Shown here piece by piece: positions 29,541 through 40,920 of a stretch of DNA of 64,000 bases; the first letter of the stretch is position 1, and every line of letters starts with the position of its first letter. Made by a program: the position numbers and the translations under genes. Below the pieces are notes generated by a model that was given only the letters and a program-made list of their open reading frames with translations, was not told where the DNA came from and ran no database searches. Origin of the DNA: Bacteroidota bacterium (lineage in GTDB: Bacteria; Bacteroidota; Bacteroidia; UKL13-3); assembly GCA_046309355.1 (NCBI GenBank), contig JBKCPL010000031.1:70520-134519 (forward strand), given 5' to 3'.

Positions 29541-30638
29541 ATGTCATTAAAATGCGGAATAGTAGGGTTACCTAATGTTGGGAAATCAACCTTGTTCAAT
29601 TGCTTATCCAATGCCAAGGCACAAGCTGCCAATTTCCCTTTTTGCACCATTGAACCCAATGTGGGTGTAATTACGGTTCCTGATGAGCGGCTGAATGAAT
29701 TAGCAAAATTGGTAACCCCTCAGCGAGTTGTACCTACTACCATAGAAATAGTGGACATTGCCGGATTGGTAAAAGGAGCCAGTAAAGGCGAAGGTTTAGG
29801 CAATCAATTTTTAGCCAACATTCGAGAAACCGATGCCATTTTGCATGTACTCAGATGTTTTGATAATGACAATATTATTCATGTGGATGGCTCTGTTGAT
29901 CCGGTAAGGGATAAAGAGATCATTGATACTGAGCTTCAACTAAAGGACTTAGATTCGGTAGAAAAAAAACTACAACGTGTATCACGTGCAGCTAAAACTG
30001 GCGATAAGGATGCCGCTAAGGCCGAAGCAGTTTTACTGAAATACAAGACCCAGCTGGAACAAGGTAAAAGTGCGCGAACGGTTGAGGTATCGGAAGATGA
30101 CAAGAAGCACATAGAAGATTTGCAGTTACTGACCATAAAGCCGGTATTGTACGTATGCAATGTGGATGAAGCATCCGTAGTAAATGGCAATAAATACGTA
30201 GATAAGGTACAACAAGCTATTCAGGATGAAAATGCAGGTCTGCTAATAATTAGTGCAGCAATCGAAGCCGATATCGCACAGCTTGAAAATTACGATGACC
30301 GTGTAGCGTTTCTGTCCGACTTAGGTTTAACCGAATCGGGTGTGGCCAAACTTATACGTGAAGCGTATGCATTGTTAAATCTGATAACCTATTTTACAGC
30401 AGGTGTTCAGGAAGTACGTGCATGGACCATTACACGGGGCATGAAAGCGCCTCAGGCTGCAGGTGTAATTCATACCGATTTTGAAAAAGGGTTTATACGT
30501 GCCGAAGTAATCTCATTCAATGATTATACCCGACTGGGCTCAGAAGCTGCCGTAAAAGAAGCCGGTAAAATGAGGGTTGAAGGAAAGGATTACATTGTAC
30601 TAGATGCTGATGTGATGCACTTTAGGTTTAACGTTTAA
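29541..30638 (+). CDS. ychF: Ribosome-binding ATPase YchF.
   Basis: [23 protein letters not shown]...[12 protein letters not shown] is the canonical YchF N-terminus. The C-terminus is a TGS domain. Confidence 0.95.
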
Positions 30639-33600
30639 TCCTGCACCACTTTATCTATTTCAGCAAGTATCTGTTTCTTCAAATCGTCAATTGAATTAGC
30701 CAGCAAGGCTGATTTCTTATCAAAGTCAACTGAGCGAATACGCATATTCAACACAAAGGTATCGCCATGTTTCTTGTAGGTACCGCTAAGCTTGTACGCC
30801 TCGGGAAAGTCTTTAACATCCAAAAATACCAGCGACCCGCCTTTAGCTCCTGAAACGCTTCTTTCGTTTAGCTCACCATCAATTAACTTACTTAAGCCGA
30901 GTTGGTCTTCCGACTCATCCACATCAATAAAAGTAGAACGTACAAACATAGGCTTGGCCTGCGCCAGCGGAATACTTGAACGAACGTCTTCGCTTACCTG
31001 ACCTATATCAAAACTTTCCGCTCCGTAAGGGCTGAATACTTTTGGCTCTTGTATTCCGCCAATACCTGCAGCTATTTGCGGAACACGCTCGCGGGCAAAA
31101 TTGAGCAAAGGCAATACGTCCACAAACTCACTCTCACGCAGCGATGCACCTTTTATACCCTGAAGCAACGAATAGGTGAGCAGACCTTGACCGTAACGTG
31201 AGGCCTCGTAACTTACTGCATCAGCAGCGCAACCAGTAATGATGTGTGTGCCCGTGCGGTCTTTTAAGCGATCGAGGGCTCGCAGTGCAGAAGAAGAAAT
31301 ATCGCGTTTAGAAACCAGATTATCTACCACCCTGCCCGATGCACATGCATCAATCATCATCACCTGTTTGAGTGCACGTATCTGTTTTAACTTTTCGGTG
31401 AGTTCACCCGATGAAATTCCGACTTTAGCTCTCAACTGAGGATCTGAATACGCTTCAGCCTGAGCTGAATGAGCAGTTTGTGTCAGGTAATAAAAATCTC
31501 CATCGGCACCCCCAATATTGATACCGTGGCCGCTCAAGTAAAGCAAAAACAAATCTTCCGGTTTAGCCTTTTGACTTACTTCATCAAGCACCTGAAGTAT
31601 TTGCTCCTTACCCGGCTTATAAGACGATGCAGTATCGGTTGTAATAAGATAGCCGAATACCTGCGAACGGTTAAATAATTTTGACGCTGATAAATTGATA
31701 GCCCTGTAAATATCTGTGGCATCTTTAGACGCATATCTTAAATCAATAGATGATCCTTCGTAGTCAGATGTCCCAATACATACCACATATACCGATGGCT
31801 TAACCACAGCATTGGTTACTGCCTGCTTCAGCGGAATGCGTGCACCCCTGCTCACTATGGTTTCATCTAAATTGTAAGCCCTCACCTCTATGTCATTACT
31901 TCCACCTTTAAGAAAAGGATAACTGGCAGTAGGGAGAACAAGGTACAACGAATCCGATGATTCACTCACTGACTGTGGCCTAATATCGGTGATTACCTCT
32001 TTTCCATTTATAAACATAGTTGCCTTGCCTATACCCCCACCCTGGTTGTACAAAGTGATTTTCAAATCACCATTTTGCTGCTCTGGATTCTGCCATTCAA
32101 GTTTAACTTTCGGGTATAATTTTACTTCTTCAAATGTGTTGACCTTTCGAGCTGCCTCTGCTGAAATACCCAAAACCTTTTGAAGCAGATTGGGCTCATA
32201 GTATTTGGATTTCAACTGTGACAATTCAATAATTTCATTTCCTGCAACATAGTACATGAGTTTCATGGCACCGGGAGAAGCATCAAACATTCCTCCGGGT
32301 GTTATAACAACCCAATCGGCAGAATCAATTGGATAGAAAGAAGCCATTGGTTGCGATGTATGAATATCCCAAAACTTAACACACTGATCAAATCCTGTAC
32401 TAACAACAAAACTGTTAAATCTGAAAAATCCGTTTGCCTGGCGTTTGTGTCCCGTATATCTGTTTTTCTCTGAAACGGTTTCTTTCAGCCACATAACGAT
32501 ATCTGCATTGGGTGCATTGCTTATAATATCGGTATTGTTTATCAATGCATCCCATATGTTATATTTCAGGTCAATAATTTGCGATGTAGCCGCAGCAGCA
32601 TCAATAGCTACAATGCTGGGATTAATCCCAAACGAATAAAATTTGCCGTTATCGTATCGTATTTTCTGTGCCCCATTGGTACGTTGTGCAGGGAAAATTT
32701 CCAAGCGCTTGGCGGTTTTAGCATCCCATAAAATTACGGTTGAATCAGTTGAACCGGTAGCTATATATTTTCCATCAGCAGAAAATGCTCCACAGGTAAC
32801 CATTGACCGATGAGCCGCAAGTGTAAAAAGACGTGCACCTGTTTTCAAATTCCATACAGCAGAGGTTCCATCTTTTGATGTAGTAAGCGCGAGCGAATCG
32901 TTCCATACATCAATATCCGTGATTATATCACTATGCCCTTTCAGTACGTTCATATACGTGCGGTCTGAGCGCTTAAACACATATACGTTCCCATCTCGGG
33001 AGCCTGAAAGAATTAAGTCGTTTCCTGAAAATTTTGCAGCCAGAAATTCGGATTGCCCTGCACGTCTTAATGAGCCTGTATGATTGATAATATTAAATAG
33101 CCTGATTTGATTGGTACGACCTGCAAAAATCAATTCGCCTGACTGGGCATGCATATCGGCCTCGTTAAAGTTGAAACTATATCCTCGTAACAAAGGTTTC
33201 GCATTGGTTCCATTAAAGCTGAACACAGCATTGCCTGAACTTAATATGGCTGCTGTTGGCATAACCGAAATGGCATCAGCCGAAAACGGGAGTGTAGCTA
33301 CACGTTGTGCTTTGGCATTATCCAGTAAAAAGATGTGGCCGCTTTTATTAATGGCATAAGTTAGGTTATTGAATACAAACACGGAAGCCGCATCTGTGAG
33401 TGTGCCGGCCGGCTGTTGTTTATTTTGCTGCAGGTCGTACTGTATCAACTCACCTTTAGCAGTGAGTAGCCATAGTGTATTTTTACGCAAAAATGCATGA
33501 ATAATTTTTTCCGGTAATTGAATTATACGCAGCGGTTCGGGTTGATTGATATCGCGTTCAATACATTTTCCTGTAATATCAACCGATATACATGTTGAAT

Positions 33601-34108
33601 TTCCTGTTGCAGCAAGCAGCACCACTTCATCGTAAGCTTCATAGTTACGCACAACTTCGCCAGTGGAAAGCGATACTGCCTGAATGCTTTTATCAGTAGC
33701 ATATGAAAGTAAAAATTTATTGTCGGCAGAAAGCGCCAATTTCTTCACTGCCCCCCGATGGTGAATGAATTCTTTGATGACCTGAGCGGTAGCAATGTTC
33801 CAAAGCTTAATGGTGTGATCGGCAGATGCACTGAAAAAGAATTTCCCATTGGCGGACACGGCCAGAGCGTGAACAGCATCCTCATGCTGTTCATAACTTC
33901 GTATTTCTTTTTTCTCGTTTACATTCCACAGCTTAATGGTTTTATCGCGGCTGGCAGTAAGCACATACTGATTATCGGACAAGGCTACAACATCGTGAAT
34001 AATACTGCTGTGGCCTAACGGCAATACCAGCTCAGGTTTTTGTGCGTAAGTGTTGTGCAAACACAAAAAGCACACTATGTACGATATGTACAGCCATTTA
34101 TTCAGCAC
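30635..34108 (-). CDS. Secreted 1157-aa multidomain protein with an N-terminal signal peptide, two WD40 beta-propeller regions and a C-terminal caspase-like (clan CD, C14-type) peptidase domain.
   Basis: The start is GTG. The signal peptide is [23 protein letters not shown]. More than ten WD repeats are present (TIKLWNV, TIKLWNI, SAVWNL, TVILWDA, CVKFWDI ...) across aa 35-590. The caspase block spans aa 772-1000. It begins [13 protein letters not shown], the catalytic His is in LYLSGHG (codon 31526..31528) and the catalytic Cys is in MMIDACASG (codon 31343..31345). Confidence 0.8.
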
Positions 34109-35711
34109 AATATACTTTTACTCCGTATTTGTCAATATATAACCACGTGTCGTCTTTACGAACCAGGCATAGCCCCTCTACAAAATCCAATATCTGATCG
34201 TATGTAGGCTCTACAATCTGCCGGTTGTTGCGATCGACAAGGCCCCATTTACCGCCCTTTTTAACTTTAGCTAAACCTTCAGCATTAAAGTCAGAAATGT
34301 CATCGTAAATTACAGGAATAACTACTTCGCCTTTGCGGTTTAATATGCCCCACATCTTATTGGCTCGCACACGAGCATAGTCCCCTTTAAAATCATAAGC
34401 ATTGTCGTATGTAATTGGAATGACTACGGTATTGCCTTTATTTACGTATCCGAACTTACCGTCTTTTTGCACCATAGCCAGCCCATTGTAGAAATTTTGT
34501 GCCTTCTCATATCCGGCAGCAATAAGCAGTTTACCGGTTTCATCCATAAATCCCCATTTGCCATTTTTAGCCTTTACGGGGTAAAGTACTTTTTGGTATT
34601 GCAACATAATTTTCTGCAACTTGGAAACATTCGGGTAGTTTTTGTATTTATTCAGGAATAGTGTTATAGTGCTTGTATCGCTGTAGTTGATTTCCATTTG
34701 CTCAATCATTTGCCAGGCATCTTTTACATAGCGGTTAGTTGGATACGACTGTATAAAATTGGAATAGGTTAAAGAGGTTTTTTCTCCTTTAATGGCAAGC
34801 AAATAAATCTGCTCCTCGGCTTGTGCTATGTAGGGACTTGTTGGATACTGATTGATAAAAAGCTGAAACTCTTCTATGGTTTTTCCTTTTGTTCTGGTCT
34901 CGTACAACATCTTTTCATATTTGCTTTTAGCTTCTGTCAAATACATGTTATCCGCACGTGTTCTAATAAACTCTTCAAACGCTTCCAGGGTGTTATCAAG
35001 TAAACACTTATCATATATTAAACGGTCAAATTTCTCTTTAGCTTCTTTGGCATACGGACTTTTTGGATGTTTCTTTGAGAATTCCAGATAGGAGTCGGGT
35101 TGCTTATCGTTGGTGTTTTCCTGATAAAACTTTAAATCATAATTGTCTTTTGCCGTTTTTGCTTCTGCTGCGTCCGGATATTTTTTAAGAAACTGATCAA
35201 AAGCAGCAGATGTGTTTTCCTTTTCTGCATCGGCAAAAGCCAGTGCATTTCGTTTTTGTAGCACTTCCGCTCTAAGGTGGGTTTCGTGAAATGAATTGAG
35301 GTATTGCTCAATTGCTGACAGAGTTCCTGTTCTTAATGCAATCGCATAGGCAGACTTTTCAATTTGTTCTTTGAGCGCTACAATTTCAGTTTCGCCTATT
35401 TGTACTGAACCCATTTCTTTTTTCATTGCCGAATTGGCATCACGGGCTGTCTGTTGTGCTTTGATGATAAATTCATATCCTTTTTCATAGTTAAATGCCG
35501 GATTATCTTCTGCTGCAAAATATCGGGCCATACCATACAAGGCTGCGGGATGTGCAGGGTAATCGGCCAATATGTCTTCAAGTATATCTTTTGCTTTTGT
35601 GTACTGTTTCTCATTTAGTAGCTTAATTCCCTTTTCTATTTTGGTGGCTGATACAGTCAGGGCTAAAATTGCCAATGCAAAGGCTAATGTAATTTTCTTG
35701 TATGCAATCAT
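34098..35711 (-). CDS. Secreted protein with N-terminal TPR-like helical repeats and C-terminal WG (KWG-type) beta repeats.
   Basis: The signal peptide is MIAYKKITLAFALAILALTVSA. At least five copies of a helical motif of about 38 aa are present, of the form ..F..F..KYP.S.Y...A. The C-terminus has at least four WG repeats (KWGFMDETGKLLI, KFGYVNKGNTVVIP, KMWGILNRKGEVVIP, KWGLVDRNNRQIVEP). Confidence 0.6.
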   Translation of the reverse strand: MIAYKKITLAFALAILALTVSATKIEKGIKLLNEKQYTKAKDILEDILADYPAHPAALYGMARYFAAEDNPAFNYEKGYEFIIKAQQTARDANSAMKKEMGSVQIGETEIVALKEQIEKSAYAIALRTGTLSAIEQYLNSFHETHLRAEVLQKRNALAFADAEKENTSAAFDQFLKKYPDAAEAKTAKDNYDLKFYQENTNDKQPDSYLEFSKKHPKSPYAKEAKEKFDRLIYDKCLLDNTLEAFEEFIRTRADNMYLTEAKSKYEKMLYETRTKGKTIEEFQLFINQYPTSPYIAQAEEQIYLLAIKGEKTSLTYSNFIQSYPTNRYVKDAWQMIEQMEINYSDTSTITLFLNKYKNYPNVSKLQKIMLQYQKVLYPVKAKNGKWGFMDETGKLLIAAGYEKAQNFYNGLAMVQKDGKFGYVNKGNTVVIPITYDNAYDFKGDYARVRANKMWGILNRKGEVVIPVIYDDISDFNAEGLAKVKKGGKWGLVDRNNRQIVEPTYDQILDFVEGLCLVRKDDTWLYIDKYGVKVYCAE

Positions 35712-35719
35712 AGGTAAAC

Positions 35720-37165
35720 TCAATATTCAATAACTATTTTATCTTTCGCATTTCCTTTAATGTTTGGATTTTGTTGCTGTCCGATGAGTCTTGCCTGGTA
35801 AGGCACTCCTGCATTGTGATCATTAACAAAATCATACACCTCATCCAGCGTTACTTTGTTGTCCGTATTTTTATCCGTTTTCTGCGGATTTTGCAAGGCT
35901 TTCAGAAAAAAGTATGTAAACATCCCATGCTGTTGTTCAGGGTACCAGTTAGCTGTTTCGTTGCTTGATGTTGCCGTAATAACAGCACCGTTTGGCAGCT
36001 CTACCTTGGTTTCTTCAACCGGAATACCCAGCGGACTGATATTTTCATAAATATTGCCTGAATAGCATGCATCGATAATAACTGTTGTAAATTTAGTTCT
36101 GATCTTAGCCAGATTTCCATAGAGCAACTCTGTTGGATATCCACCAAACTGAACGTTATTGGGCTTACACTCTACCGGCACCAGGTAGCTTTTTTTGTCG
36201 TACTGCGAGGGAGCTCCGTGTCCTGAATAATAAATGAACACTTCGGCATTGGGGTTTTTAACCAATTCATACAACTCAGCTTTGTAATTTTCACGTGTAC
36301 CGAATATGGCTTCAAAATCGCCTTTGGCTGCATTCTCCCGGTATATGACATTACCCGGCATAAAACCCATTACATCTACCAGGTATTTTTTAATCATAAC
36401 AGCATCATTAATTGCAAAATCAACATCCTTTCCTTTGATGTTTTTGTAATCCTTATTCCCAATAACCACTGCGTATGCATTTTCATTTTTACTTTTGGTT
36501 ACCGGAAGGTTTATATCAACATCTGAGTTCCCTACTGATATTACCTTAACTCGTTCGTTGATTTTTTGCACGTTGGAACTCAGATTAATATCAATGTTTC
36601 CGATATTAATGTCGAGTGCGGTTACGAAGTGATTCTGAACTGAACGGTCAAGCTGATACTCTGTATCCAGAAAAGGGTCTTTAATAACTAGGTCAGTCAC
36701 AGCAAACTCTTCACCTTGCAGTGTATACTTGATGTCATTAAAAATTAGTTCGTGCAAATTATCCTGAAAACTCTGAGCCTGCTCACCATGTGGAACTTTA
36801 ATAAGAAACGGCAGCATATTGGCTACTGTAATTTTATAGGTTTCATTTTCGCTGTCGTATACGGCATCAATTTTAGACCAGTCAATAACCTTTTCAGCTA
36901 TGGATGCAATTACAATCTGGGTGAATTCATCCACTTTACGCTGCTTGTTTTGCTTATCAACCCGCACCTGATATTCTTCCAGTTTTTCCATCGGATCTTT
37001 TTGTAACCACTCGGTAAGTTTAGCTTTCACGGTGGCTTCAATCTGCTCTGCATAAGTTGGTTTGTAGGTAACCATTATTTCGTTGCTGAACGCAACCTGT
37101 TTCTGCGCAAACACATGAAGTGTTAGCCAAATGAAACATACAACCAATAGTACTCCTTTTTTCAT
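35720..37165 (-). CDS. Secreted protein whose C-terminal half is a caspase-like (clan CD, C14-type) peptidase domain. The N-terminal domain is unknown.
   Basis: The signal peptide is MKKGVLLVVCFIWLTLHVFAQ, and a GGAGG Shine-Dalgarno sequence sits 5 nt upstream of the ATG at 37165. The caspase block begins YAVVIGNKDYK. The His is in FIYYSGHGAP (codon 36218..36220) and the Cys is in VIIDACYSG (codon 36065..36067). Confidence 0.75.
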   Translation of the reverse strand: MKKGVLLVVCFIWLTLHVFAQKQVAFSNEIMVTYKPTYAEQIEATVKAKLTEWLQKDPMEKLEEYQVRVDKQNKQRKVDEFTQIVIASIAEKVIDWSKIDAVYDSENETYKITVANMLPFLIKVPHGEQAQSFQDNLHELIFNDIKYTLQGEEFAVTDLVIKDPFLDTEYQLDRSVQNHFVTALDINIGNIDINLSSNVQKINERVKVISVGNSDVDINLPVTKSKNENAYAVVIGNKDYKNIKGKDVDFAINDAVMIKKYLVDVMGFMPGNVIYRENAAKGDFEAIFGTRENYKAELYELVKNPNAEVFIYYSGHGAPSQYDKKSYLVPVECKPNNVQFGGYPTELLYGNLAKIRTKFTTVIIDACYSGNIYENISPLGIPVEETKVELPNGAVITATSSNETANWYPEQQHGMFTYFFLKALQNPQKTDKNTDNKVTLDEVYDFVNDHNAGVPYQARLIGQQQNPNIKGNAKDKIVIEY

Positions 37166-37178
37166 ATTTACCTCCATT

Positions 37179-38186
37179 TTATTCTACTGAACAAGCGCAG
37201 CGGAAGCCAATGCTACCAAAGCTATTGCTCATATATTCAAAAAATTTATAGTTAAGCATCAACTCAAGCTCATCGCTGTATATCGAGCCACCTTTTACAG
37301 CTTTCTTATCCGGATCAGAAAGTTCTGCATCTTCGCACCATTCAGATGCATTGCCTGACATGTCGTAGATAAATAGCTCATTGGCCAATTTTGTTCCAAC
37401 GGTTCCCAAAAGTGTCAAATCAGCATTTTTAGTATACCATGCAATGTCACGAATAATATTACCGCCACTGTACACATAACCTCTACTGTACAGTCCACCA
37501 CGTGCTGCATATTCCCACTCAGCTGCCGAAGGCAGGCGCTTATTTTTCCACTTGCAATAGGCCTGCGCATCATTCCAAGAAACAAATACAACCGGTTCTT
37601 TCCATTCGTCTTGCTTTTTTACCTGTCCGTTAGGGTTGTTAAACCAACGGGCATTTTTGTTCAACTCCCACTTGTTGTTCTTAGTTCGTGCGTAAGCAGG
37701 CATCTTTTTCTCGGCATCTGTGGTGTAGCCTGTAGCCTTTACAAATTGCTCAAAATCTTTGTACGATACTTCGTACTGATCTATCCAATAGTCTTTTTTT
37801 ACCTGATTATTCTTTTCTGAGTCTGATGTTACGTAGATCATGCCCGATTTGTACTTAAGTGCTTCAACACGAATTTTCCCTTTGCTGTGGAACAGTGTAT
37901 CATTCAGGTAAGGATTCCATGAAAACTTCATATTGCCATGTGGCTTGATGTTATCTCCAACGTCTCCAATAGCATATTTCAACTCAAAGGTGATGGTATC
38001 TTTCTGACTGGGAACAAACCAGGCTCTTACTTTATACCTGCTGTTGGTATCGGTATCTTCCAGTGCATAACTCACCTCTATAATTCGCTGATCATCTTTT
38101 TGCGCAACCACATTTTTCAAAAACTCCTGTGCTTTCAAGAGTTCAGGTGCAATTAACAATGCTATATATACTATCGCGTATCTCAT
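37179..38186 (-). CDS. Secreted protein with an FGE-sulfatase (SUMF1/formylglycine-generating-enzyme fold) domain.
   Basis: The signal peptide is [20 protein letters not shown]. The C-terminal domain shows [16 protein letters not shown]...[15 protein letters not shown]...GNASEWCED...GGS...GFRCA, all conserved FGE-sulfatase blocks. Confidence 0.75.
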
Positions 38187-38190
38187 CTTT

Positions 38191-39135
38191 CTATCTTTCT
38201 ATAGTTATATCCTTATAATCAAAGGTACATTGTGCACTACCCATTTTCAGCTTATGTACCCAGCGCTGAAACTCTTCTGATTCCATATTCGAAGGTAACT
38301 TATATTTTTCAGTTGCAACTCCCGTATACAGGGTATTTGTGGAGGAAAGCATTGGGGATGGAATAGGTTGCTTAGAGAATATAACAAACATTCGCAACTG
38401 CTCCCTGTACTTACCATCGCTTACATATGCACTTATGTTATGAAACCCTGCATTCTCAAATACATTATTACGTGAACTAAAGAATAGATAGTCTTCGTTG
38501 GCATTTACCGGCATTCCGTTTTCAAATTCGGTTGATGCTTTGTCGTAAGGTAAAAGTCGATAACTTTTACCATCAAACATATCGTAATACACCATAAGGT
38601 AACCCGATTCGGGAGAGCGGAAATACAAATAGAACGGATCACCATGTTTGTAGACGGTTGCCTGGCAACGCCTAAACTCGTCCTCGCAGGGTGTAGGACG
38701 TGCAATAAAGTCTACTTTCGGTTCGGTTAGTTCCCTAACTCGTACTTTTAGTGTACATATTAACTCAACAATATCGGTTTTTTGACCTCCCAGTTTTACC
38801 GTTTGCCGTACTTCTTCAAATTGTTTATCGAGCACTTCCACTACTTCACCCTTTACAAATGTATTGGCTATGGTACTGAACATAGATTTTGTTTCGATGC
38901 GTGAACCGTTGTTGCTATTTTCTATGTAAGTAGAATTACCCTGTATAATAACCTTACCGAATGCTTTCTCAATGGCATTGACTGTAGCCAGTTCTTCGGT
39001 TTTATTTTCAGCCTCTAGTCTGCTTTCATTTCGAGTCCATTCTCGCTGTGCTGTACCTGTTACAACAGCTATATTTTGTGCATGTACATAATACGCCATG
39101 AATTCTATTACAAGAAGTAAACAAATTTTATGCAT
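38191..39135 (-). CDS. Hypothetical secreted protein.
   Basis: The ATG at 39135 gives the signal peptide [20 protein letters not shown]. There is no family I recognise. Gaps to both neighbouring genes are short. Confidence 0.45.
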
Positions 39136-39149
39136 GCTAGTGGAGTGTT

Positions 39150-39770
39150 TCAATTGAGCGTTAGAAGTTTATCGAGTTGTTCGCCTGTCAGTTTATTTGA
39201 AGGGCTGTTCGCAATAACTGATTTAGCAGCTTCTACAGTTTGTTTCAAGGGATAGCATACGTGAACACTCACTTCATAGGTATTGCCCTGCTGCCTGTAT
39301 ATTTTAAGTATCGGCTCAACATATCCAAGCCGTGTTGTTATGGTATTTTTGGTTTGCCTAACCAATTCACTAACCGATTGTAATTCGTCTTTCGCAATGC
39401 GGGCATTCGACAAATTGGCCTCCATGACTGAAATTAATGCCGACTCAATAAGACCGGCTACGGCTATTTTAGCAAATTCAACCGCTTGTGCCTCAGCTAC
39501 CGACTTTACATTGGCCGAAGCCTGTGCATCGGTAACTACATTTACAGACATTCCGCGCTCGTCTTTAAGGCGCTGTTTTTGCCAAACTGTACTAAGCTGC
39601 TCAGATAAAGGCAATGAGCCCGGGAAGGTAACCCAGCCTTCTTTTTCAAGTCGCTTCAACTCTTTCTTAAGTTCTTTTTGCTGAGCATCTGATTGTGCAT
39701 AGGACTCCTGAGTATTGAATACCAATAAACATAGCCATACTAGCTGAAATATATATTTTTTCATATTCAT
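39150..39770 (-). CDS. Hypothetical secreted protein, possibly LPP20-like.
   Basis: The internal ATG at 39770 gives MNMKKYIFQLVWLCLLVFNTQESYAQ. After a charged coiled-coil-like stretch comes an Ala/Val-rich amphipathic region (AEAQAVEFAKIAVAGLIESALISV). Confidence 0.4.
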   Translation of the reverse strand: MNMKKYIFQLVWLCLLVFNTQESYAQSDAQQKELKKELKRLEKEGWVTFPGSLPLSEQLSTVWQKQRLKDERGMSVNVVTDAQASANVKSVAEAQAVEFAKIAVAGLIESALISVMEANLSNARIAKDELQSVSELVRQTKNTITTRLGYVEPILKIYRQQGNTYEVSVHVCYPLKQTVEAAKSVIANSPSNKLTGEQLDKLLTLN

Positions 39771-40885: not shown

Positions 40886-40920
40886 CAAAAAACGGAAGAC
40901 AAAGTTGTCTTCCGTTTAAT
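40886..40920 (-). terminator. Rho-independent terminator downstream of trxA.
   Basis: An aaacggaagac / gtcttccgttt stem is followed on the minus strand by a T-run. Confidence 0.6.

Follow-up and report, generated by a model that had tools for sequence, protein, structure and literature searches.

Two genes with caspase-like domains lie close together in a 64,000-nt stretch of DNA from a Bacteroidota bacterium of lineage UKL13-3 (GenBank assembly GCA_046309355.1, contig JBKCPL010000031.1, positions 70,520 to 134,519), hereafter called the window, and the smaller of them raises the question of what its 481-aa product does and whether it does so together with its larger neighbour. The roles of bacterial caspase homologues are largely unknown, and this locus offers a defined experimental handle on them rather than a settlement of the matter. 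Taken as a whole, the gene is best explained as encoding an exported, catalytically competent C14 peptidase of the metacaspase/orthocaspase kind that would be activated by scaffold proteins, with a DUF4384 protein from the same six-gene operon as its regulator or substrate, a reading to which we assign a probability of roughly 0.6. The protein is a member of a large uncharacterised caspase family of Bacteroidota and allied phyla, in which the caspase domain is preceded by a dedicated N-terminal domain (N-domain; caspases that carry it are referred to as N-CASP), and it represents the minimal architecture of that family. Coordinates of all features are collected in Table 1.

Profile, His-Cys dyad and caspase fold, which are all the features of Peptidase C14 that a sequence or model can probe, were each found in the 481-aa protein. 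Residues 231-471 match Pfam Peptidase_C14 (PF00656) with an E-value of 7.3e-18 and 65.5 bits against a cutoff of 21.4. An AlphaFold2 model of the protein, built from 29 homologues, reached a mean predicted local distance difference test score (pLDDT) of 80.6, with most of the caspase region at 85-97. When the model was compared with the PDB using Foldseek, the best match was the paracaspase MALT1 (E 4.5e-12, template modelling score to the target 0.72), followed by yeast and plant metacaspases and caspases-7 and -8, with 144 matches in total at E ≤ 1e-3. The two motifs quoted in the original prediction are present as described: YYSGHGAP contains His316 (codon 36218-36220) and IIDACYSG contains Cys367 (codon 36065-36067). 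Conservation was counted over 186 family members aligned to the family profile. His316, Cys367 and Asp254 are invariant in all 186, while Asp365 is kept in 185 and replaced by Glu in the remaining one; His316 (within YYSGHG) and Cys367 (within DACYSG) are likewise invariant in the alignment of 29 relatives.

These residues also bear on the expected specificity. The INDA, SGHG and DAC-SG motifs of the family profile align with CVNDV, SGHG and DSCHSG of Arabidopsis metacaspase-4 and -9. In published metacaspase and MALT1 structures the two corresponding aspartates line the S1 pocket and give specificity for Arg/Lys. Both acidic S1 residues that mark the basic-P1 metacaspases, orthocaspases and paracaspases are present in the family, namely the Asp of the (C/A)-x-N-D motif after strand 1 and the Asp two residues before the catalytic Cys. 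Because Asp254 and Asp365 align with the metacaspase S1 aspartates, the 481-aa protein is predicted to be an active C14 peptidase cleaving after Arg or Lys.

Comparison with known enzymes places the protein nearest to, yet apart from, three groups. Bacterial metacaspase-like proteins or orthocaspases (MEROPS C14B, e.g. Microcystis MaOC1) share with it the C14 domain, the SGHG and D-x-C-x-SG dyad and the two S1 acids. The window protein differs from them in being exported, in carrying a dedicated N-terminal alpha/beta domain that lacks a Pfam family, and in having no conserved basic autoprocessing site; MaOC1 autoprocesses after an Arg. MALT1, the best structural match, owes its Arg specificity to acidic S1 residues and is activated by scaffold-driven dimerisation without inter-subunit cleavage. 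However, it is only 14-17% identical, is eukaryotic and cytoplasmic, and has death and Ig domains, and the similarity suggests a way of working rather than membership. The plant and fungal metacaspases (AtMC4, AtMC9, Yca1) are the only PDB sequences that the family profile reached (E 3.7e-4 to 4e-3), and their Asp, His and Cys motifs align column for column, although the match is weak and partial (residues ~231-374) and the window protein lacks the prodomain or linker of types I/II. Other caspase-fold families were rejected. The legumain family Peptidase C13 (PF01650) gave a partial match of 22.9 bits against a cutoff of 22.8, as compared with 65.5 bits for C14, and sequence matches to PDB legumains all had E > 0.06. 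The NCBIfam model for EACC1-associated caspases (NF047832) scored 71.8 bits against a cutoff of 140, and no EACC1-like gene was found in the operon by Pfam or PADLOC.

Separately, an EF-hand-like loop (D-K-N-T-D-N-K-V-T-L-D-E) was noted between two helices of the caspase domain, at residues 431-442 (window 35840-35875, minus strand). D431 is kept in ~104 of 186 relatives (about 56%) and E442 is conserved. The loop may bind Ca2+, at a place other than the classical Ca2+ site of metacaspases.

In the AlphaFold2 model the protein is laid out as a signal peptide, an alpha/beta N-domain of about 140 aa, a linker and the caspase domain. The N-terminal part had been described as an unknown domain of about 210 aa; indeed neither a significant Pfam family nor a similar fold in the PDB was found for the N-domain, while the length is better divided into a folded part of ~140 aa and a disordered linker of ~37 aa. 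Nor was profile-level similarity found between the N-domain and the two proteins that begin the operon, which we call G239 and G320 (hhalign probabilities < 1%). Searching 1.84 billion cluster representatives with an N-domain profile returned 1435 proteins at a threshold of E ≤ 1e-3, of which 925 stayed in at E ≤ 1e-10. In 125 of the 137 best new matches the N-domain stood directly before a caspase of the clade, the remainder being short and probably fragments, and it is therefore a dedicated companion of the N-CASP clade that almost always directly precedes the caspase. Architectures within the same 137 were N-CASP (94), WD40-N-CASP (16), WG-N-CASP (11) and N-N-CASP (4).

The N-terminus, MKKGVLLVVCFIWLTLHVFA followed by QK, has n-, h- and c-regions like those of a Sec signal peptide cleaved by signal peptidase I. 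In Bacteroidetes a Gln commonly follows the signal-peptide cleavage site, the so-called Q-rule (PMC5837995), and the 481-aa protein matches it. Signal peptides were called with a crude hydropathy heuristic, by which all six operon proteins and 148 of 176 family members have signal-peptide-like N-termini. No C-terminal sorting domain of the type IX secretion system (Por_Secre_tail/CTD) was detected with Pfam in any of the six operon proteins. Because a signal peptide is present and no such sorting domain was detected, the protein is likely to reside in the periplasm or on the inside of the outer membrane. As such, the earlier description of the protein as secreted stands for export across the inner membrane, as predicted from the signal peptide, and does not extend to type IX secretion, for which the C-terminal domain was not detected.

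Whether the enzyme would be activated by cleavage can be approached through the conservation of basic residues. The original prediction had proposed a search for conserved autoprocessing sites in the inter-domain linker, and this search, run over the 186 relatives, found none: no position between N-domain and caspase carries Lys or Arg in more than 34% of them, the position of Lys224 being basic in 32%. In the loop after the catalytic Cys, position 382 is Lys or Arg in 68% of relatives and Pro in the window protein. A conserved autoprocessing site of the kind used by MaOC1 or type II metacaspases was thus found neither in the linker nor in the post-Cys loop. As there is no conserved basic site and MALT1 is the top structural match, activation without inter-subunit cleavage would be favoured by analogy.

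Evidence on what might activate the enzyme instead comes from related loci. A scan of one genome per species identified at least 553 of these in Bacteroidota (Microscillaceae, Cytophagaceae, Saprospiraceae, Bacteroidales), Cloacimonadota, Marinimicrobia, Nitrospirota, Ignavibacteriae, Desulfobacterota and others, and neighbourhoods were counted in 83 fetched loci (84 with one duplicate fetch). Culturable carriers of a related caspase-clade gene include Flexithrix dorotheae DSM 6795 (L071), in whose copy the N-domain is missing, and marine bacterium AO1-C. About 25 of 84 loci carry WD40 repeats fused to N-CASP, and a WG-repeat fusion occurs in a single locus, which has two copies. Judging from such fusions, the separate scaffolds of the window operon, which are a TPR and WG-repeat protein and a WD40 protein, may act together with the 481-aa enzyme; the fusions also point to which neighbouring proteins may interact. 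In ~41 of 83 loci, which come from several phyla, a G320-family gene adjoins the caspase gene, and the two often overlap at the stop codon of the caspase. Of 32 G320 family members, 26 match DUF4384 (best 3.7e-16) and six match FlgT_N; the window's G320 has a stretch of basic residues between its domains. Earlier surveys have recorded WD40, TPR, FGE-sulfatase and DUF4384 domains in association with bacterial caspase homologues (PMC3501461, PMC7475262). Moreover, DUF4384 frequently forms fusions with proteases, and some Csx30 substrates of Craspase contain it (bioRxiv 10.1101/2022.08.17.504292). In this type III-E CRISPR system (Csx29/Csx30), as at the window locus, a caspase-like protease is encoded beside a non-enzymatic partner, and the Craspase partner, which can carry DUF4384, is the cleaved substrate (bioRxiv 10.1101/2022.08.17.504292). 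Craspase differs in being a cytoplasmic, RNA-guided TPR-CHAT protease, and no CRISPR components are present at the window locus; it serves as an analogy only, and this analogy motivates the idea that the DUF4384 partner may be a substrate.

Put together, these observations suggest a mechanism in which a Sec signal peptide would export the clan-CD/C14 cysteine peptidase to the periplasm, where repeat scaffolds would assemble or recruit it in the cell envelope. The WD40/WG scaffolds that are fused to the caspase in other genomes would here be supplied in trans by the TPR-WG and WD40-caspase proteins. As in MALT1, activation would not depend on inter-subunit cleavage but would follow from proximity or oligomerisation, and G320 would be the regulator or substrate of the protease. 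Several points weigh against this reading. The signal peptide was called by a heuristic rather than by a dedicated predictor, and a thiol protease in the oxidising periplasm would need protection of Cys367. The S1 residues were assigned from an alignment, not from a substrate complex, and the AlphaFold2 model, with a predicted template modelling score of 0.58, leaves the relative orientation of N-domain and caspase undefined. The G320 partner was not found in about half of the 83 loci (many of them on truncated contigs), and genes like those for the FGE-like and TPR-WG proteins occur in few related loci. Scaffold-induced activation and the role of the DUF4384 protein as substrate or regulator are both analogies.

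A more far-reaching and doubtful proposal is that N-domain caspase and FlgT_N-like/DUF4384 partner form an undescribed periplasmic sensing switch, in which the scaffolds would detect an envelope cue (damage, phage, predator or neighbouring cell) and the caspase would respond with Arg/Lys-specific cleavage of the DUF4384 partner. If true, such a switch would have a wide distribution across Bacteroidota, Cloacimonadota, Marinimicrobia, Nitrospirota and related phyla, with add-ons that vary between loci (WD40/WG scaffolds, a non-catalytic FGE-fold protein, an outer-membrane beta-barrel, a transglutaminase-like protein), and would parallel, outside the cytoplasm, the apoptosome- or MALT1-type mode of activation. 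The dedicated N-domain, the export of the whole gene set and the recurrent FlgT_N-like/DUF4384 partner were not met as described features in the literature on bacterial caspases, in which no search was aimed at them. For experiments, the locus offers a minimal exported enzyme of 481 aa with predicted intact catalytic machinery, an unnamed N-domain present in at least 1435 sequence clusters, and a conserved DUF4384 partner as the obvious candidate regulator or substrate.

The presence of two caspase genes side by side had led to the suggestion of either a processing cascade, in which one caspase activates the other, or a heteromer. The operon itself is tightly packed: six minus-strand genes from 39764 to 30635 overlap or lie ≤ 13 nt apart, and no convincing terminator was found within this cluster. 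The second caspase, a protein of 1157 aa, keeps SGHG and DACASG. S1 acidic residues are retained in both caspases (the Asp of INDA/SKDA and the Asp of D-A-C), and both look active on the strength of these residues. Multi-metacaspase operons have been reported in Bacteroidetes since 2012 (PMC3501461), and the pairing is conserved in four related loci (L001, L005, L064, L072). However, the two domains are only 22-23% identical (BLASTP E 1e-4 over 134 aa; 45 of 198 hidden Markov model columns), and the C-terminal module of the 1157-aa protein belongs to a family of its own (CASP2) with 300 matches at E ≤ 1e-10 in Bacteroidota, Ignavibacteria, Acidobacteriota, Planctomycetota and Desulfobacterota. 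To call the two paralogous was therefore generous, since they represent two separate and widespread families rather than a recent duplication. A CASP2-type gene accompanies the N-domain caspase in only 4 of 83 loci, and a second caspase of any type in ~12 of 83. Conversely, four distant CASP2 loci have the gene alone or in arrays of its own paralogues, none with an N-domain caspase, G239 or G320. The linker without a conserved basic cleavage site and the Pro at position 382 argue in the same direction, so that an obligate cascade or heteromer seems unlikely, and two side-by-side caspase genes should not be read as a cascade. It is far less probable again that the 481-aa protein is a pseudo-protease acting as a scaffold alone. 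Pseudo-orthocaspases are known in bacteria (PMC6426788), and loss of pocket residues in one of the two caspases would have pointed to one here; the alignment instead showed the catalytic His and Cys and both S1 acidic residues kept in both, and in the 481-aa family the dyad is kept in every relative counted.

Two further explanations detach the protein from its proposed scaffolds and partner or move it to the cytoplasm. The signal peptide and the broad protease type would suit a nutritional or degradative exoprotease that digests environmental protein and has nothing to do with its neighbours, and Bacteroidetes metacaspases have been speculated to help degrade phytoplankton-derived polymers (PMC4933709). 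Such an enzyme would not be expected to have a dedicated N-domain, common fusions to WD40/WG interaction scaffolds, and tight, often overlapping linkage to a non-enzymatic DUF4384 partner across phyla; nor did Pfam detect a type IX sorting domain on it or genes of the polysaccharide utilisation locus/SusCD type or for peptide uptake in its operon, and we consider this explanation improbable. Marginally less credit still is given to a cytoplasmic conflict or defence component of the type described for multicellular bacteria, based on nucleoside triphosphatases (NTPases) or linked to diversity-generating retroelements, in which caspase, WD40, TPR and FGE-sulfatase domains form the same vocabulary (PMC7159879, PMC10907252). 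PADLOC does return its generic 'caspase' model, yet apart from a WD40/HEAT model this was its only match and no known defence system was recovered. Neither STAND, MoxR nor vWA NTPase domains were found in the six operon genes (Pfam, NCBIfam), all six proteins have signal peptides, and the EACC1-type caspase score is far under its cutoff. Within the 64-kb window a retroelement target was also rejected, since the 3' end of the FGE-fold gene (37179-37400) finds no matching repeat there and a reverse transcriptase is lacking. Housekeeping genes surround the locus, and its synteny is kept in L001. In favour of the conflict explanation, a 35%-identical N-CASP gene and its G320 partner in another locus (L002, ENA ERZ21878204 ctg8634l) adjoin tyrosine integrase, FtsK/SpoIIIE-like and HTH_17 genes; as the module adjoins an integrase there, N-CASP may sometimes travel on an integrative element.

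The start of the gene and the motif before it were considered together. The open reading frame is real, with 481 aa counted from the ATG at 37165, while the mechanically called frame starts four codons earlier at ATG 37177 and gives 485 aa. The sequence GGAGGTAAATATG was found at 37163-37175 on the minus strand, and its GGAGG overlaps the alternative ATG at 37177. In the relative L001, whose protein is 87% identical, the initiation region reads TAAAAGGAGGTATGTTATG, so that GGAGG and the downstream ATG are kept and the upstream ATG is lacking; the spacing there is AAGGAGGT, 6 nt and ATG. Because L001 keeps the downstream ATG without the upstream one, the 481-aa start is the better call. The caspase gene is the only one among ~50 proxy genes in the window with a full, correctly spaced GGAGG before its start. 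GGAGG occurs 44 times in 128 kb (both strands), which puts at ~0.1 the probability of finding it in a 7-nt window for one or more of 50 genes. The motif is kept, and is even longer (AAGGAGGT), in the 87% relative, and it is absent from the 60% relative and more distant relatives.

Ribosomes of Bacteroidia sequester the anti-Shine-Dalgarno sequence and ignore Shine-Dalgarno sequences, the exception being exceptionally strong ones (< -13 kcal/mol pairing; 9-13 bp helices typical of rpsU) that are read by bS21-less ribosomes (PMC7797042, PMC9976891). As all but such exceptional motifs are ignored, the 6-8 nt match before the caspase gene is weak evidence for high expression or coupling. The original prediction was right about the upstream GGAGG, which lies 5 nt from the ATG, and went too far in what it read from it, for the motif is conserved only in the 87% relative and a GGAGG before a Bacteroidota gene does not attest to high expression.

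Table 1. Features of the caspase gene and its operon, in window positions (1-64,000)
Feature	Position	Strand	Remarks
Caspase gene, 481 aa, exported N-domain + caspase (C14)	35720..37165	-	ATG 37165; stop codon 35720-35722
GGAGG	37171..37175	-	5 nt 5' of ATG 37165, after the stop codon of the FGE-like gene (TAA, 37179-37181)
Predicted signal peptide, residues 1-21, MKKGVLLVVCFIWLTLHVFA before Q	37103..37165	-	Sequence, helix 2-18 in AlphaFold2 model, hydropathy heuristic, Q-rule
Family-specific N-domain, three helices + six-stranded sheet, residues ~35-172	36650..37063	-	No Pfam family, no PDB fold match
Predicted disordered linker, ~37 aa, residues 176-212	36530..36640	-	pLDDT < 50
Caspase/hemoglobinase-fold catalytic domain, residues ~225-481	35723..36493	-	His316, Cys367, S1 Asp254 + Asp365, EF-hand-like loop D431-E442
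G239, exported ~204-aa helical protein	39150..39764	-	No Pfam family; in 17 related loci
G320, exported FlgT_N-like + DUF4384 protein	38191..39135	-	Most persistent neighbour of the caspase clade
Exported FGE-sulfatase-fold protein without catalytic Cys pair	37179..38186	-	Best PDB match inactive SUMF2/pFGE
Exported TPR + WG-repeat protein	34098..35711	-	WG repeats fused to N-domain caspases in other genomes
Exported 1157-aa WD40 (two propeller regions) + second caspase domain (residues 776-1026) + C-terminal extension	30635..34108	-	Separate C14 family

Within the operon the order is G239, G320, the FGE-sulfatase-fold protein, the 481-aa caspase, the TPR-WG protein and the WD40-caspase protein, and the same six genes recur with this order in L001 and in L005 (60% identity). 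G239 has no significant Pfam family, is found in 17 of the 83 loci, and aligns with G320 over the signal peptide only. The FGE-fold protein lacks the Cys pair between GGS and GFRC, and over its full length the PDB entry that it matches best is SUMF2/pFGE (E 2.4e-18), which has no catalytic activity. Because of the missing Cys pair and this inactive match, its role is probably that of a binding module and not of a formylglycine-generating enzyme (FGE). A recurrent neighbour in 11 related loci (e.g. L003:1616-2746) combines an outer-membrane beta-barrel with the ~100-aa domain known from the N-terminus of the FGE-fold protein. Another neighbour of ~510 aa, without a Pfam match, lies downstream of the DUF4384 gene in L003 (6428-7960) and in 8 other loci, nine in total; its C-terminus looks transglutaminase-like (YSDCEDRS...NHLATAV...CDPTY), and the gene is absent from the window operon. 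Regarding the family of the second caspase, CASP2 tandem arrays with three very large WD40-caspase genes were seen in Lewinellaceae and on a JGI metagenome contig (L085 and L088). Many CASP2-family members are without an obvious signal peptide, unlike the window copy.

Upstream of the operon, a strong intrinsic-terminator-like hairpin (window 40890-40917, minus strand) closely follows trxA; it has a 12-bp stem with a T run behind it. A polyprenyl synthetase gene and the six-gene cluster are located downstream of this hairpin, and no terminator like it separates these two. Elsewhere in the window, a 70-aa Lys/Ala-rich open reading frame with KKAAPKKAA repeats, histone H1-like, is present at 1630-1842 on the minus strand, and it explains the sole direct-repeat family of the window (12 overlapping copies with 12/15-nt spacing, 1618-1848).

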